NCBI GenBank assembly: GCA_000165345.1
Contig: CM000431.1
Span: 320,001 to 384,000 of the forward strand
Direction of reading: 5' to 3'
Length of the DNA stretch: 64,000 nt
Under the pieces are notes generated by a model that had not been told where the DNA came from, did no database searches, and saw only the letters and a list, made by a program, of their open reading frames with translations. Numbering within the stretch: position 1 is the stretch's first letter; each line of letters starts with the position of its first letter. The translations under genes and the position numbers were made by a program. Shown here one piece after another: positions 10,716 through 62,776 of this stretch.

Positions 10716-10727
10716 TTTGGCGCCAGG
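10716..10727. promoter_or_regulatory. E2F-like GGCGCC core (TTTTGGCGCCAG) about 260 bp upstream of the Myb-repeat gene ATG
   Basis: GC-rich hexamer palindrome in an otherwise AT-rich intergenic spacer. It matches the TTTGGCGCCAAA class over-represented upstream of Cryptosporidium genes. Confidence 0.45.
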
Positions 10728-10812
10728 ATGCACTTTAATGCTACATGTAGTTAATTAGATATACTTATTGAAATAATAAAATTAATAAACCATTAACCAT
10801 ACAGAGTTTTAG

Positions 10813-11499
10813 TCAAACTTGATTCTCATTGTTAATTTTTTGAATTGTACAGTTCTGAGCTAGTTCTGTATCTACCAATTGAACGTTTTCAAAATTTTCA
10901 ATGATTTCTTTTGGAGTGATTGCCATATAGTAAAGTAATTTGCTTGTAAGCAACTTACAGTGTTCATTTATTGAGAAATTATTACATTTAGCTTTATTAA
11001 TTAGTGACCTAATAAATGGTGCATTGTTTTCCGTGATTACGAGATTTCTAATAACGTTATTAATTTCTTCTTTTACTTGGATTTCTGTATTAATATTTTC
11101 ATCTAATGTTATTTGGGAAAAACGATAAATTCTTTTTAACAATAGTAAATCTACAAAGCTATTACACTCCTGATTTATTTCTTGAATTTTTTTAGTTAAT
11201 TCATCTATTATTTCTTCTTCACTTTTATTATTATCGATTTCTTGTGAATTAGATTGTTTTCCAGCAATTCTTAACCTTGCTGAAATCAATTCGTTATTTG
11301 TTTTAGATAGTGTTGATGAACACAAATCAACTTTTTTTTGTAATTCTATAATTTTTAAATCAACTGAATACTCTCCTAATTTATTTAAAATTGATGTAGG
11401 ATTCTTATTGGAAGATTTATTATTTCTTATTGAAATCACATAATTTACTTTGAAAATAACTAAAATATACAAATATTCAACAAAAATATTAAAAGCCAT
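10813..11499 (-). CDS. Signal-peptide protein, divergent short member of the local secreted paralog family
   Basis: 228-aa ORF with an N-terminal hydrophobic segment (MAFNIFVEYLYILVIFKVNYVIS). A C-terminal CNNFSINEHCKLL motif resembles the C-N-x9-C-x-F motif of the four downstream genes, and a coiled-coil-like central part is present. Confidence 0.5.
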   Translation of the reverse strand: MAFNIFVEYLYILVIFKVNYVISIRNNKSSNKNPTSILNKLGEYSVDLKIIELQKKVDLCSSTLSKTNNELISARLRIAGKQSNSQEIDNNKSEEEIIDELTKKIQEINQECNSFVDLLLLKRIYRFSQITLDENINTEIQVKEEINNVIRNLVITENNAPFIRSLINKAKCNNFSINEHCKLLTSKLLYYMAITPKEIIENFENVQLVDTELAQNCTIQKINNENQV

Positions 11500-12813
11500 T
11501 TGAAATACTTTTTTTTGAATTTAAAAATACTAATCAAAGAATTTTGTTTAATAATAATCTTTTACAAATAAATGTGGTATCTAAATAACATTTTTTTTTT
11601 CATTTTCTAGTTTGAAGCTTGCTAAATATAGAAATTAAACTCTATAAAACGTTCGACAAAACAAGTAAGAAATAAACTAGCTTATAATTTGAAATTTTTA
11701 TAATCAAAATTAAATGAAAACTATTTAATCAAAAGTTTATTAATATTGATAATTTTAAATTTATCAGTTCCAATATACTAGCCCACATACCCGCCAATTT
11801 CTCTGCATGCATTATTATTTCATTTAAATAATAATTAGTACTAAAATAAAATAAATTATTGAATTTTAAAATATATATAATAGGAAAATAATTACTAGAC
11901 TTTTATCTTTATTTAGTATTCTGTTTTGTATAAAATTAATCAATTTTTTTTGTATAATTATATTTAATGCTATTCTATGAACTTTTTTAATATGCAATAA
12001 AATAATAATTAAATTACGTGTTAAAATAAAATATTATTCATGCATTATTTAGTGTGTAATATCAAATGTTATAGAGTTTTTAATGAAAATCTACAATAAA
12101 ATGTTAAAATATAAAGTTCTATTTATATTTCTATTTTATAAATATTCAAATTTATTTCTTAAAAAATTAATAATAAAATATTTTAATTAAAAATTGTAGA
12201 GATGAATTAATATATAATTTATTAAATAATATATTCCCCTCAATTTATTTACTAAAAGCCACAATTTTAACAAAATTTAAACAGGTTGTTTCTAGATTTT
12301 GTTTAAAAATCTAAACAACTTTCTTACACATTTAATCATAATCTATTTGATTTTTATTTATCATTTAAAGTATTATTTATTTTAATTATTTTTAAAAGAA
12401 CTTATAAACTTTTGCATTACCGCCTAATTTATGAACATGCAAAATTAAAAGGATGTTATTATGCAAAAAAAAAAGTATGAAATTAATGAGAAATTTAAAT
12501 TATTATATAATTTTACAAACCAAGAATCTATTTATTATCAAGTTTTATCTATATAATTATAAATTTATTTTTGAATCTTTGATTTTTTTTTTGTTTTTTA
12601 TCTAGTAAATATGAATTTTGTACATTGTTATTATTATTATTAGTAATAATTTTTAATTTGTTTAATTAAGGCCACAATATCAGATTCAGATTCTCTTTAT
12701 AATTCCTTTCTAACTAATTTTTTAATTATTTTAAAATTCACATTAATCACTAATATAGAAAGTCTGCTAAATTATTTTCAGATTTCCATAATAATACAAC
12801 TTGCTATAACTTT

Positions 12814-12833
12814 AAAAAAAAAAAAAAAAAAAA
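12814..12833. repeat. A20 homopolymer in the 1.48-kb AT-rich spacer of the secreted-gene cluster
   Basis: Seen directly. Confidence 0.8.
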
Positions 12834-60584: not shown

Positions 60585-60836
60585 ATAGCTTTATAGGTAT
60601 GATAATAGAGGTTGTGCCTAAAAACGTTGTCAAAGAAACATATATTTAAAGTCTAAAGACATTACACTAAAATCAGCACTTTTAAAATTAGTATATATTA
60701 GGTTTTAAGATTCAATACAAGTAAAGTCAACTAGTAGCAAAATAGACTTGTAATATAACTACTTACTTATAAGTTAAATGTTTATATTTACAAAAAAACA
60801 CAAATCTCTAAATTTAGAGAATTCTGTTTAATTCTT

Positions 60837-62603
60837 CTACTGTAGATCATTGATTGAAAGCCCATCAAGTAACTCAGAAATGTCAACTTGTTGTGAAAAC
60901 TCATCATCATGATCTTGTTGGTACCCTTCGTCATCCATAATCATATCATCAGATTCAAATTGGCCTTGTGATTGATTCTTTGAGAGTTTATCTTTTTTAA
61001 CAAGGTGTCTGGGTTTTCTAGCCTTTTGATAAATTTCTCTGGATGATTCTTGTATTCTTGGATCCCAATATAAATTAACATCACGTCTCATTTCTGAATC
61101 TTCTTCAAGTTCTGCTTTGAATTGTTCAAGATCTTGGTTAAAGCTACTCTTAGAATTTGCATTGTCAAAAGCAAGCTGTTCTTTTGGAAGTCTTTGTAAG
61201 ACCCAAGGTCTTTGAATAGATGAATCAAGATTATTTTGATTTTTTCGGAAAACCTTCTTGACAAGAATTACATCATGGTTACGTTCTCTCCATTGAACAA
61301 ATTCTGAAATATCTTCAACAACACCAAAGTTATTTAGTGTTCTAAAATCATATCCAGAAACCCAGTCACCTGAATTCAAGTATGCTCCTAAATGGGTGGT
61401 TACTATTACACTAGAGTCTGGTATTCCTAAGTCAGACTCTCTGCAAACTTCAACCTCTGCAATACAAACTTTGTTATTCTTACCTTGGTTATGATCTGAT
61501 CCTACAGCTGAATGCTTCCCCGTGGTATTAATCCTTTCAACATTGAGAACATAAAAGTCAACTAGACTTGAACGTGATAACAATGGGATAAACGAGCTTC
61601 CATTAGATCCCGAATATTGCCAATACTTCTCTTTTGTAAGATCTGCTTCTCTTCCTGTGAAAGGATCTATAAGAGAAATTCTGTTAGTTATCTTCTTACA
61701 TAACAATAAAGATGAAATACCTCCTAAGAGTGATATACATAGATTCTTTGGAATAAAAACGACGTCATCTTTACAAATTGGACATAACTCAACAGAAAAT
61801 GTGAATTTGTTATTGTGAGTATTAGAGCTTAAATCTTGAGAAATAAGCTGTCTACTGTTTTTAACCTTGGATGCAAAATAATGAGTAATAAAGTCAACAA
61901 GCTTCTGAGCATGACTCTTCTGTTGAAACTGGAAATCCAATCCATCAGGTTTCTCAACAATATTAGACACTTTCTCATGTGCTCCATGCTTTAGAATAAG
62001 TTGTTCCAAGTACAAAAAGGTTCTCTTATGTTCTACTCTCTGACGAACTTGTACAACAGTATTCCAAGTATGAGGAGTAAAGCTCCTTCTACAATCATCA
62101 CATTGCTGAGCTTGCATAAAGAACTCAACTACTATACTCTGTTGAATAATTGCTCCATTCATTACCTCTTTTTGTATTGTACACTTAACCTTCAATCTTC
62201 TACTATGTGGCTCTGTCCAAATAAATGATGCATCTACCAGCCTAACAGTGTTCAAACCCTTTATTTTCTTCAAGCATAAAGCTAATAACTCTCTACTTTC
62301 TAACTGACAAGATACCCATGGAGGCTTTTGAAATCTCTCGCATTGCCTACAAAATGATATTATTGCTTGCCTAGAAATTCCTTCAGTTATATCAACTTCT
62401 GATCGAATACAATTTATACACATTCTAGATGGATTAATTTCTGTTGCAACTCCGCATACACAACAGTTCATATATTTAGGACGTTCTACCCTGTAGCTCA
62501 TCCCATCCATTTCTCCATAAACTGTTGCATTAGCATCCATATGCATTTGACTATTCTCCATACTACCTACCATCCTTCCACCATCATTACTATCAAACAT
62601 CAT
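60837..62603 (-). CDS. NMD3: 60S ribosomal subunit export adaptor NMD3
   Basis: 588-aa ORF with an N-terminal Cys4 zinc-binding cluster and the motif CCVCGVATEINPSRMCINCIRSEVDITEGISRQAIISFCRQCERFQKPPW, diagnostic of NMD3. It is followed by the conserved NMD3 middle region and an acidic C-terminus. Confidence 0.9.
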   Translation of the reverse strand: MMFDSNDGGRMVGSMENSQMHMDANATVYGEMDGMSYRVERPKYMNCCVCGVATEINPSRMCINCIRSEVDITEGISRQAIISFCRQCERFQKPPWVSCQLESRELLALCLKKIKGLNTVRLVDASFIWTEPHSRRLKVKCTIQKEVMNGAIIQQSIVVEFFMQAQQCDDCRRSFTPHTWNTVVQVRQRVEHKRTFLYLEQLILKHGAHEKVSNIVEKPDGLDFQFQQKSHAQKLVDFITHYFASKVKNSRQLISQDLSSNTHNNKFTFSVELCPICKDDVVFIPKNLCISLLGGISSLLLCKKITNRISLIDPFTGREADLTKEKYWQYSGSNGSSFIPLLSRSSLVDFYVLNVERINTTGKHSAVGSDHNQGKNNKVCIAEVEVCRESDLGIPDSSVIVTTHLGAYLNSGDWVSGYDFRTLNNFGVVEDISEFVQWRERNHDVILVKKVFRKNQNNLDSSIQRPWVLQRLPKEQLAFDNANSKSSFNQDLEQFKAELEEDSEMRRDVNLYWDPRIQESSREIYQKARKPRHLVKKDKLSKNQSQGQFESDDMIMDDEGYQQDHDDEFSQQVDISELLDGLSINDLQ

Positions 62604-62628
62604 CGGGCTCGCTTTCTATAAATAGTAA

Positions 62629-62776
62629 CTTCGCCCGGTCAATTTATCTCGAAATGTAAAGTTTAACTGGTCGGTCAATTTAAAGTCTTTTTTAATCAAA
62701 ATGTCTTCCCGCCTAAAAAATGACTATCCTTGTAGAAAATTATAGGGGGAATGTAATAATTGAACGTTTTGGCGGG
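62629..62776. promoter_or_regulatory. Cluster of E2F-like GC boxes (TTCGCCCGGTC 62631, TTCCCGCCTAAAA 62707, TTTTGGCGGGC 62768) in the divergent promoter between NMD3 and the partial gene at the window end
   Basis: Seen directly; TTTCCCGCC / GGCGGGAAA is the classic E2F consensus. Confidence 0.4.

Follow-up and report, generated by a model that had tools for sequence, protein, structure and literature searches.

The 64,000-nt stretch of Cryptosporidium parvum DNA analysed here (the window) carries a short palindromic word, GGCGCC with T- and A-rich flanks, in the 5' intergenic regions of most of its genes. The species assignment rests on exact protein matches to chromosome records of GCA_015245375.1, an assembly cited in the C. 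parvum assembly paper. These sites are probably functional promoter cis-elements of C. parvum, representing the published 'E2F-like' motif, with E2F/DP as the likely binder. In agreement with the original prediction, 15 of the 16 copies of GGCGCC are intergenic, and either a strict site (GGCGCC) or a variant (GGCGCGC or GGCGGG) is found in the 5' intergenic region of 20 of the 24 gene starts in the window, whose map of open reading frames is consistent with public gene calls. Little is understood of how Cryptosporidium, a leading cause of diarrhoea in children, regulates its genes. A single 12-bp word placed on most promoters can help to annotate promoters, design reporters and study transcription factors, as the field already recognises; the present analysis adds comparative evidence for selection on the sites and their spacing, and a possible consensus difference in the gastric clade.

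Expected counts were derived from dinucleotide shuffles and, separately, from an order-2 Markov model built on the intergenic DNA itself. For GGCGCC, the window has 16 copies where shuffles predict 0.37; TTTGGCGCCAAA with at most one mismatch was observed 8 times against 0.05, and the textbook E2F consensus TTTSSCGC 16 times against 0.96, with 15 of these 16 matches being intergenic; none of the shuffles matched the observed counts of the three words. Intergenic DNA, which makes up 24% of the window sequence, contains GGCGCC at 0.96 per kb compared with 0.02 per kb in coding DNA (binomial p = 8e-9), and the 15 intergenic copies stand against 0.41 expected under the Markov model. An unbiased ranking of intergenic 6-mers placed TGGCGC, GGCGCC and TTGGCG at the top, all of them pieces of one word. 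About 17 intergenic occurrences had been anticipated, and the count came to 22, comprising 15 strict and seven variant sites (Table 1). The sole coding GGCGCC has two mismatches to TTTSGCGC on both strands and is probably a chance occurrence outside the system. Its near-absence from coding sequence had been foreseen correctly, although at the wrong position: the region 19617-19640 holds only variants (GGCGC-T-GGCGCGC), located in genuine coding sequence right after a signal peptide.

The flanks are those of a canonical E2F site. T and A runs extend the intergenic GGCGCC copies to TTTGGCGCCAAA, of which the window contains four perfect copies; the two that had been predicted 38 bp apart (44775 and 44813) are indeed present but are not the only ones. 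In a logo of 30 half-sites, T occupies position -1 in 22, -2 in 26 and -3 in 21. TTTSGCGC is matched perfectly on at least one strand in 9 of the 15 intergenic sites, and with at most one mismatch in all 15. The symmetric core [C/G]GCGC[G/C] occurs in the 15 intergenic GGCGCC sites and in two GGCGCGC sites, and matches to SGCGCS are intergenic in 17 of 19 cases. The GGCGCC palindrome is strongly preferred over the CGCGCG or GGCGGG forms. Beyond the 12-mer, flank identity is 0.341 compared with 0.342 +/- 0.011 in random intergenic DNA. The flanks are thus no more alike than such DNA, which means that the sites do not form a repeat family, and an origin as remnants of a dispersed repeat or mobile element was rejected.

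The distance from a site to the nearest ATG is 95-466 bp, the lower figure being the minimum for any site in the window. The predicted range of 95-470 bp therefore describes the sites well, except for that at 39857, located 831 bp from the CNNM start. For hyp514 and the ubiquitin-domain gene, the counted site is 0.7-1 kb off, beside the divergent neighbour. Guanylate cyclase, hyp300, hyp712 and 14-3-3 are without a strict or variant site in the 5' intergenic region; hyp300 and 14-3-3 have degenerate sites, and the 14-3-3 orthologues of chipmunk genotype I, C. canis and C. felis have GGCGGG/CCCGCC sites 600-670 bp upstream. Two sites occur in three of the four divergent regions and in two of the 16 tandem regions (Fisher p = 0.03). 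The expected pairing at divergent promoters is a weak tendency, with about 0.9 sites per promoter in both classes. The HECT/prefoldin promoter has two sites in chipmunk genotype I as well, and one each in C. canis, C. felis and C. xiaoi.

Table 1. Sites of the promoter word in the window, with their positions and surroundings
Site	Position	Strand	Location and conservation
TTTGGCGCCAGG	10716..10727	.	266 bp upstream of Myb gene ATG (10455, - strand)
Variant ATTGGCGGGTAT, GGCGGG core	11787..11798	-	293 bp upstream of hyp228
ATTGGCGCCAAC	14278..14289	.	386 bp upstream of hyp306; TGCATGCA 28 bp off
Variant AAAGGCGCGCAAA, GGCGCGC core	16169..16181	.	436 bp upstream of hyp323
TAGGGCGCCAAT	18167..18178	.	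282 bp upstream of hyp495
Degenerate double site TTAGGCGGCAACGCCTTTT, weak candidate	20040..20058	.	about 350 bp upstream of hyp300
Sole coding GGCGCC, GGTGGCGCCACC	27677..27682	.	inside giant HECT gene; flanks not T/A
CTTGGCGCCACA	38934..38945	.	HECT-giant/prefoldin divergent promoter; ATGs 205 and 155 bp away
TTCGGCGCCAAA	38963..38974	.	HECT-giant/prefoldin divergent promoter; 234 and 126 bp; 9/12 columns invariant in four species
TTAGGCGCCTAC	39854..39865	.	831 bp upstream of CNNM; 406 bp past prefoldin stop
Variant TTTGGCGGGAAT	40219..40230	-	466 bp upstream of CNNM; GGCGGG at equal distance in C. canis
ATTGGCGCCAAC	40244..40255	.	441 bp upstream of CNNM
Variant TTAGGCGGGCTT	43295..43306	-	134 bp upstream of HABP4-like gene; 11/12 columns invariant in four species
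Perfect TTTGGCGCCAAA	44775..44786	.	Nab2-ZnF(ZC3H14)/hyp456 divergent promoter
Second perfect TTTGGCGCCAAA	44813..44824	.	Nab2-ZnF(ZC3H14)/hyp456 divergent promoter; 38 bp start to start from copy at 44775
TTAGGCGCCAAA	46507..46518	.	341 bp upstream of RPL14; kept at 324-340 bp in three species
Variant TGTGGCGCGCAC	46730..46741	.	118 bp upstream of RPL14; kept at 118-125 bp; GGCGCC in C. canis
TTCGGCGCCAAA	48115..48126	.	95 bp upstream of RING-finger gene; 90-106 bp in three species
TTAGGCGCCAAA	49892..49903	.	173 bp upstream of centrin; 12/12 columns invariant in four species
Degenerate double site TTTGCCGCC...TTTGGGCGGTAA	54567..54591	+	about 700 bp upstream of 14-3-3
Perfect TTTGGCGCCAAA	55923..55934	.	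343 bp upstream of RPL12
Perfect TTTGGCGCCAAA	57508..57519	.	400 bp upstream of UBX gene; 38 bp past hyp199 stop
TTAGGCGCCACT	58341..58352	.	198 bp upstream of hyp199; 693 bp from divergent hyp514
Variant TTAGGCGGGAAG	62705..62716	-	107 bp upstream of NMD3
Variant TTTGGCGGGCTT	62768..62779	+	170 bp upstream of NMD3; about 985 bp from ubiquitin-domain gene ATG (63756)

Both the sequence and the position of the sites are under purifying selection. In alignments of four species (C. parvum, chipmunk genotype I, C. canis and C. felis), four-way invariant columns number 6.75 of 12 per motif 12-mer, compared with 2.03 in the background (p = 2e-5), and this excess persists despite the 47% GC of C. canis. 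Sites are kept at orthologous positions in species ranging from 30 to 47% GC, and the GGCGCC copies at orthologous loci are intergenic in 8/8, 8/8, 7/7 and 3/3 cases; in the HABP4-like gene promoter, TTTAGGCGGG is found in C. xiaoi too. The distance to the ATG is kept, whereas that to the end of the upstream gene varies (90-106 bp versus 293-513 bp for the RING gene), and the 38-bp start-to-start spacing of the Nab2-ZnF(ZC3H14)/hyp456 double site is identical in chipmunk genotype I, C. canis and C. felis. These comparisons are direct evidence that selection acts on individual sites, ATG distance and 38-bp spacing as far as C. felis. Seemingly unstated in published accounts are this conserved distance and spacing, the use of about one site per promoter, and the local replacement of the palindrome in gastric species.

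The element is the same word as the C. parvum 'E2F-like' motif (Bankier 2003; Mullapudi 2007; PMC3734150; PMC5146892; 10.1101/2025.01.17.633476), namely 5'-TGGCGCCA-3', [A/T][C/G]GCGC[G/C][A/T] or GGCGGG. Like that motif, it lies upstream of nearly all genes, those for ribosomal proteins included, and is associated with open chromatin and bidirectional promoters. Oberstaller 2013 (PMC3734150) reported the E2F motif, with cores [C/G]GCGC[G/C] and GGCGGG, as the most over-represented upstream motif, present upstream of 161 of 200 co-expression clusters, and Liu 2016 (PMC5146892) found it dominant across species. In the preprint of Xiao 2025 (10.1101/2025.01.17.633476), the E2F motif ranks first in ATAC-seq peaks from sporozoites, and over half of these peaks carry a bidirectional-promoter annotation. 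The predicted identity with the dominant E2F/DP-like upstream motif of Cryptosporidium fits all three studies. There is no essential difference between the two; the window is a local sample that confirms a known genome-wide pattern, and since the element is the published motif, the finding is correct but ordinary.

The literature lists two E2F genes (cgd1_1560 and cgd6_1430) and two DP genes (cgd7_3650 and cgd8_1850), all lying outside the window, and among Apicomplexa only Cryptosporidium retains them (PMC12246861). We infer, as the literature does, that E2F/DP binds the site, and further that it activates transcription; a review of June 2025 states that validation is missing for most regulatory components. 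The canonical E2F/DP site TTTSSCGC (Zheng et al. 1999, as cited in PMC3734150) is alike in its 6-bp symmetric CG core, its T-/A-rich flanks and its total length of about 12 bp, and the GGCGGG/CCCGCC variants known from plants and animals likewise occur here. However, the E2F sites of animals and plants serve a restricted set of G1/S and DNA-replication genes, controlled through pRB-family pocket proteins, whereas here the site is present at most promoters. The genes downstream of sites are of many kinds (ribosomal-protein, secreted-protein, centrin, RING, UBX, Myb, NMD3 and others), and pRB and other pocket proteins, the classical partners of E2F, are reported absent. Thus, the element resembles an E2F site in its working, and a classical E2F regulon was rejected. 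TTTGGCGCCAAA is presumably the in-vitro-selected human E2F1 motif, and GGCGGGAA presumably resembles an E2F6-type motif. The 'E2F1' and 'E2F6' labels given in Xiao 2025 would be consistent with such likenesses.

Each site consists of two overlapping inverted E2F half-sites TTTSGCGC, with GGCGGG(AA) and GGCGCGC as asymmetric variants. In the proposed mechanism, a dimer of winged-helix E2F and DP would bind about 100-450 bp upstream of the ATG, keep an accessible nucleosome-free patch and thereby recruit the transcription machinery. Because it is palindromic, the site could serve either direction in very short intergenic regions, and might therefore act as a general 'this is a promoter' mark. 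This mark would be used about once per promoter by housekeeping, ribosomal, secreted-protein and regulatory genes alike, rather than as a cell-cycle-specific switch. General regulatory factors of the Reb1/Abf1/Rap1 type mark promoters in the compact genome of yeast. By analogy, they would be comparable in their short high-information site, occurring about once per promoter, in nucleosome-free DNA beside poly(dA:dT), and also at bidirectional promoters. Nucleosome exclusion by the Cryptosporidium factor is proposed, and the two kinds of factor belong to unrelated protein families.

The match to the E2F consensus spans 12 bp, including the T-run flanks recognised by the E2F family, and the minor variants are also classical E2F forms, which makes it unlikely that this functional promoter motif is bound by an ApiAP2, zinc-finger or another winged-helix protein instead. 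Such a binder would suit a target set that is almost universal and unrelated to the cell cycle. Moreover, transcripts of E2F and DP are most abundant early in the asexual stages while motif-bearing genes peak at any time point, and E2F expression does not track the motif-carrying ribosomal-protein genes. Direct evidence of CpE2F/DP binding (ChIP, DAP or PBM for CpE2F) was not found in the literature to mid-2026, and orthologous gastric promoters carry WGGCGGTA, which differs from the E2F consensus in both core and flank. Nevertheless, protein-binding microarrays of C. parvum AP2 domains gave TGCAT, CACACA and G-box motifs, their authors placing the E2F motif among those that AP2 does not bind, and the dominance of the motif is treated in the literature as a feature of Cryptosporidium, the genus that kept E2F/DP.

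A promoter role agrees with the arrangement of sites around genes. Their density is highest in divergent 5'-5' regions (1.87 per kb), the three convergent 3'-3' regions contain none, though these total just 577 bp, and the motif falls within ATAC-seq peaks assigned to upstream regulatory regions (Xiao 2025, 10.1101/2025.01.17.633476). Together with the conserved distance to the downstream ATG, this argues against sites that mark 3'-end formation or termination, chromatin boundaries or replication origins and are merely co-located with intergenic DNA. That reading is very improbable, even though several sites lie near the end of the upstream gene (57511 at 38 bp from the stop codon of hyp199, 49895 at 57 bp from that of hyp712), fractional positions within tandem regions are spread out with no preferred value, and the motif occurs in spacers inside polycistronic transcripts (Xiao 2025, 10.1101/2025.01.17.633476). 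A compositional or repeat artefact, in the form of a chance GC-rich word in AT-rich spacers or of dispersed-repeat remnants, is ruled out by the Markov and shuffle counts, the flank identity and the cross-species conservation, even with a CpG observed/expected ratio of 0.73 in intergenic against 0.37 in coding DNA.

A possibly new lead comes from the gastric species C. muris, C. andersoni and C. serpentis, whose corresponding promoters almost lack the palindrome and mostly carry WGGCGGTA. Among 16 orthologous promoters, a small sample, C. parvum (intestinal) has 12 GGCGCC and one GGCGGT, whereas C. muris (gastric) has 8 copies of the asymmetric word WGGCGGTA and two GGCGCC (Fisher p = 7e-4). 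It is conceivable, if doubtful, that the dominant promoter word changed within the genus, being GGCGCC in the intestinal C. parvum and WGGCGGTA in gastric species; a published genome-wide statement runs against such a change. If it were true genome-wide, the E2F/DP dimer, in specificity or composition, would have co-evolved with most promoters of a eukaryotic genome. Nine copies of GGCGGT are present in 8.4 kb of C. muris intergenic DNA (0.12 expected) and none in 27.6 kb of its coding DNA. Loci of C. andersoni and C. serpentis lack GGCGCC altogether, and those of C. xiaoi and C. bovis are intermediate.

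The excess of GGCGCC in the intergenic DNA of the window is real. Dinucleotide-preserving shuffles predict 0.37 copies of the hexamer, and 16 are present; for TTTGGCGCCAAA, with at most one mismatch, there are 8 copies vs 0.05 expected. Intergenic DNA makes up 24% of the window and is poorer in GC than coding DNA (24.9% vs 32.1%; 30.3% in the window as a whole). Nevertheless, 15 of the 16 copies are intergenic, at a density of 0.96 per kb vs 0.02 per kb in coding DNA (binomial p = 8e-9), and the hexamer is, as had been proposed, essentially absent from coding sequence. When all intergenic 6-mers were ranked against an order-2 Markov expectation, without any prior motif, the first place was taken by TGGCGC/GCGCCA (24 vs 1.5 expected), followed by GGCGCC (15 vs 0.41) and TTGGCG/CGCCAA (26 vs 2.8). 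No word akin to GGCGCC appears among the top 15 over-represented coding 6-mers of the window.

The sequence around the core is equally characteristic. At each of the three positions preceding the core, 21-26 of 30 half-sites have T, which bears out the predicted T/A runs, and all intergenic copies have at most one mismatch to TTTSGCGC on at least one strand. The textbook consensus TTTSSCGC, derived independently of the window, has 16 matches where 0.96 would be expected, and all but one are intergenic.

The element is the E2F-like motif that has been published for C. parvum; in other words, the observation is confirmed and its E2F reading supported, while the phenomenon itself is already known. 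The proposed identity with the Cryptosporidium E2F/DP-like upstream motif is supported by the match to published studies. In Oberstaller 2013 (PMC3734150), no upstream motif was more over-represented than E2F, 5'-TGGCGCCA-3' with cores [C/G]GCGC[G/C] and GGCGGG; it was seen upstream of 161 of 200 co-expression clusters and also precedes ribosomal-protein genes, and its first sighting was credited to Bankier 2003. Liu 2016 describes the motif as dominant across species. In Xiao 2025 (10.1101/2025.01.17.633476), it led the motifs of sporozoite ATAC-seq peaks (984 in all, over half of them annotated as bidirectional promoters), and the E2F6-type motif reported there matches the GGCGGG variants of the window.

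C. parvum has genes for two E2F proteins, cgd1_1560 and cgd6_1430, and for two DP proteins, cgd7_3650 and cgd8_1850. Other Apicomplexa have lost this family (PMC12246861), and the four proteins are the presumed binding factors of the sites. Most likely, an E2F/DP dimer would bind the palindrome and keep the promoter accessible, and a palindromic site could serve either direction within very short intergenic spacers. Classical E2F acts as a cell-cycle switch, whereas in C. parvum pRB is reported to be absent (PMC3734150) and the target set is near-universal, which argues for a general promoter mark instead. The literature to mid-2026 yielded no E2F/DP binding data for the C. parvum motif, and a 2025 review (PMC12246861) states that validation is lacking for most Cryptosporidium regulatory components.

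Since the genome is intron-poor, the ORF map of the window approximates its gene map, and it is consistent with public gene calls. The window proteins are residue-for-residue identical to genes in several NCBI assemblies, including GCA_015245375.1 (CP044420.1, about 328-388 kb), the accession cited by the paper 'Fully resolved assembly of Cryptosporidium parvum'. Pfam agrees with the gene names originally assigned for Myb, prefoldin, CNNM, the Nab2-type zinc finger (ZC3H14-like), RING, centrin, 14-3-3, ribosomal L11/RPL12, UBX and NMD3. RPL14 is a spliced gene, and the HECT domain of the giant gene is seen in its C. serpentis orthologue. Public assemblies give this giant gene as one product of about 6,150 aa; the window splits it into two overlapping ORFs (2,292 and 3,868 aa) and has N bases inside it, which suggests frameshift or assembly errors in the window's source.

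A census of the window gives 22 intergenic sites, comprising 15 GGCGCC, 2 GGCGCGC and 5 GGCGGG/CCCGCC; the original count of about 17, variants included, was too low. At least one site lies in the 5' intergenic region of 20 of 24 gene starts, in agreement with the claim that nearly every promoter is marked. No strict or variant site was found in this region for the guanylate cyclase gene, the hypothetical proteins hyp300 and hyp712, or 14-3-3, with degenerate sites present for hyp300 and 14-3-3. Five tandem minus-strand genes (228, 306, 323, 495 and 300 aa) lack Pfam domains, and a signal peptide is present in at least the 300-aa member. Since all five have an E2F-like or variant site of their own, the motif is not confined to housekeeping genes. 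The only coding GGCGCC lies in the giant HECT gene, and its flanks resemble an E2F site less than those of any other copy (GGTGGCGCCACC). It had been placed at 19617-19640, where only variants occur (GGCGC-T-GGCGCGC). That stretch is not a mis-annotated promoter: its translation, HCAPAP, immediately follows the signal peptide in a secreted-family protein, and it is therefore true coding sequence.

Sites lie 95-466 bp from the nearest ATG with a single outlier at 831 bp, the one exception to the predicted range of 95-470 bp. The sole positional signal is that no site comes nearer to an ATG than 95 bp (p about 0.02); in tandem intergenic regions, no fractional position is favoured. Four of the five GGCGGG sites in the window are oriented towards the gene, and elsewhere the asymmetric variants point either way, as does GGCGGT in C. 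muris.

Coordinates of features in the window, and ATG distances of conserved sites as ranges over C. parvum, chipmunk genotype I, C. canis and C. felis
Feature	Coordinates	ATG distance (bp)
Five tandem minus-strand genes	10813-19695	
Giant HECT gene	20283-38734	
Overlap of its two ORFs	27128-27161	
N bases inside it	about 30691, about 34671	
Coding GGCGCC	27677-27682	
Degenerate site, hyp300	20040-20058	
Degenerate site, 14-3-3	54567-54591	
RPL14 start	46854	
Block between ZC3H14/hyp456 sites	44787-44812	
Second ZC3H14/hyp456 block	44866-44895	
ATG opposite NMD3	63756	
TACCGGC/GCCGGTA	8644, 18518, 52371, 52813, 52827	
GAGACGAGACGAG-type element	46521-46545	
TGCATG(CA)	14309, 18186, 46499, 57533	
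E2F-like sites near these, respectively	14281, 18170, 46510, 57511	
RING site		90-106
RPL14 proximal site		118-125
RPL14 distal site		324-341
HABP4-like site		98-134
Centrin site		173-222

The sites are conserved across species. In a syntenic 21-kb region taken from five other species via orthologues of the zinc-finger gene, every GGCGCC is intergenic (chipmunk genotype I 8/8, C. canis 8/8, C. felis 7/7, C. xiaoi 3/3, C. muris 1/1). The first three of these species keep the sites at the promoters that carry them in C. parvum, at nearly equal distances from the ATG. Across eight intergenic regions aligned between four species, the mean number of invariant columns is 6.75 for motif 12-mers and 2.03 for all remaining 12-mer windows (Mann-Whitney p = 2e-5). 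The C. canis locus keeps gene order and E2F-like sites despite its GC drift (47% GC, 42% intergenic, vs 30% in C. parvum), which makes this a helpful species for footprinting.

A role as a 3'-end or terminator element is disfavoured, as the distance to the ATG is conserved and that to the upstream stop is not. At the RING promoter, which has a single site (48115-48126), the distance from site to upstream gene's end ranges over 293-513 bp, far more than the ATG distance, which favours a promoter role. The convergent regions of the window contain no sites, a weak test alone at only 577 bp in total. Origin from a repeat family was rejected, with pairwise flank identity beyond the 12-mer of 0.341 vs 0.342 +/- 0.011 for random intergenic DNA.

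'About one site per promoter' describes the data better than an obligatory pair. Two-site regions are more frequent among divergent than tandem regions (3/4 vs 2/16; Fisher p = 0.03), and to this extent the predicted pairing at divergent promoters stands; however, both classes average about 0.9 sites per promoter. In the NMD3/ubiquitin-gene region, both sites lie beside NMD3, about 1 kb from the other ATG, and the HECT/prefoldin pair is reduced to one site in C. canis, C. felis and C. xiaoi. The ZC3H14/hyp456 pair, in a divergent region of 361 bp (44645-45005), is spaced 38 bp start-to-start in C. parvum, chipmunk genotype I, C. canis and C. felis, and this spacing is kept along with the entire block between the sites. 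Paired-site spacings of 38 bp and 29 bp (28 bp in chipmunk genotype I) are mutually out of helical phase. The 26 bp between the ZC3H14/hyp456 sites (GTGCGGAACAGCTAATTGTCATCGTT) are mostly kept in the same four species, and a second block in this promoter (CATCTTTCTTTCTTTGCCTATTTTTGCAAT, minus strand) is identical in C. parvum, chipmunk genotype I and C. canis; both may be further elements or a transcription start region.

In the gastric species, WGGCGGTA may largely replace GGCGCC at orthologous promoters, which is rated a lead rather than a result because about 20 promoters in one syntenic block are involved. A position weight matrix built from C. parvum sites and scanned over orthologous loci at a strict threshold gave intergenic densities per kb of 0.95 in C. 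parvum, 1.46 in chipmunk genotype I, 1.40 in C. canis, 0.85 in C. felis, 0.13 in C. xiaoi and 0 in C. muris. The leading non-homopolymer intergenic 6-mer of C. muris is GGCGGT/ACCGCC (9 vs 0.12 expected in a merged 36-kb region), with no GGCGGT copy in 27.6 kb of coding DNA. It occurs mostly within the asymmetric WGGCGGTA (e.g. at merged coordinates 9880, 15784, 15826, 21935 and 30909), at positions matching C. parvum sites; at RING and NMD3, for example, it lies 81 and 121 bp from the ATG, respectively. At 16 shared promoters, the GGCGCC:GGCGGT ratio is 12:1 in C. parvum and 2:8 in C. muris (Fisher p = 7e-4). GGCGCC is absent from the C. andersoni (21.6 kb) and C. serpentis (15 kb) loci, which retain several C. 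muris sites, and C. bovis is intermediate between the two patterns. At odds with this lead, Liu 2016 (PMC5146892) found TGGCGCCA dominant genome-wide in C. andersoni. The lead is possibly new, and the difference would be modestly interesting if true genome-wide.

Other words occur in the intergenic DNA of the window, two of them over-represented. TACCGGC/GCCGGTA (CCGGTA 8 vs 1.3, ACCGGC 5 vs 0.7) occurs mainly in promoters without an E2F-like site (guanylate cyclase, hyp712 and the region upstream of hyp495). The AP2-type word TGCATG(CA) ranks fourth among intergenic 6-mers (CATGCA, 18 vs 2.5) and lies within 50 bp of 4 of 15 E2F-like sites, exceeding within-region shuffles (p = 0.003). A GAGACGAGACGAG-type element (CTCGTCTCGTCTTGAGAC in the window) adjoins the distal E2F-like site of the RPL14 promoter and may be akin to the 'GAGA-like' motif reported upstream of ribosomal-protein genes. 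It is common to C. parvum, chipmunk genotype I, C. felis, C. muris and C. serpentis, at 8119, 8105, 8045 and 2171 of orthologous loci L013, L015, L017 (C. muris) and L021 (C. serpentis), respectively.
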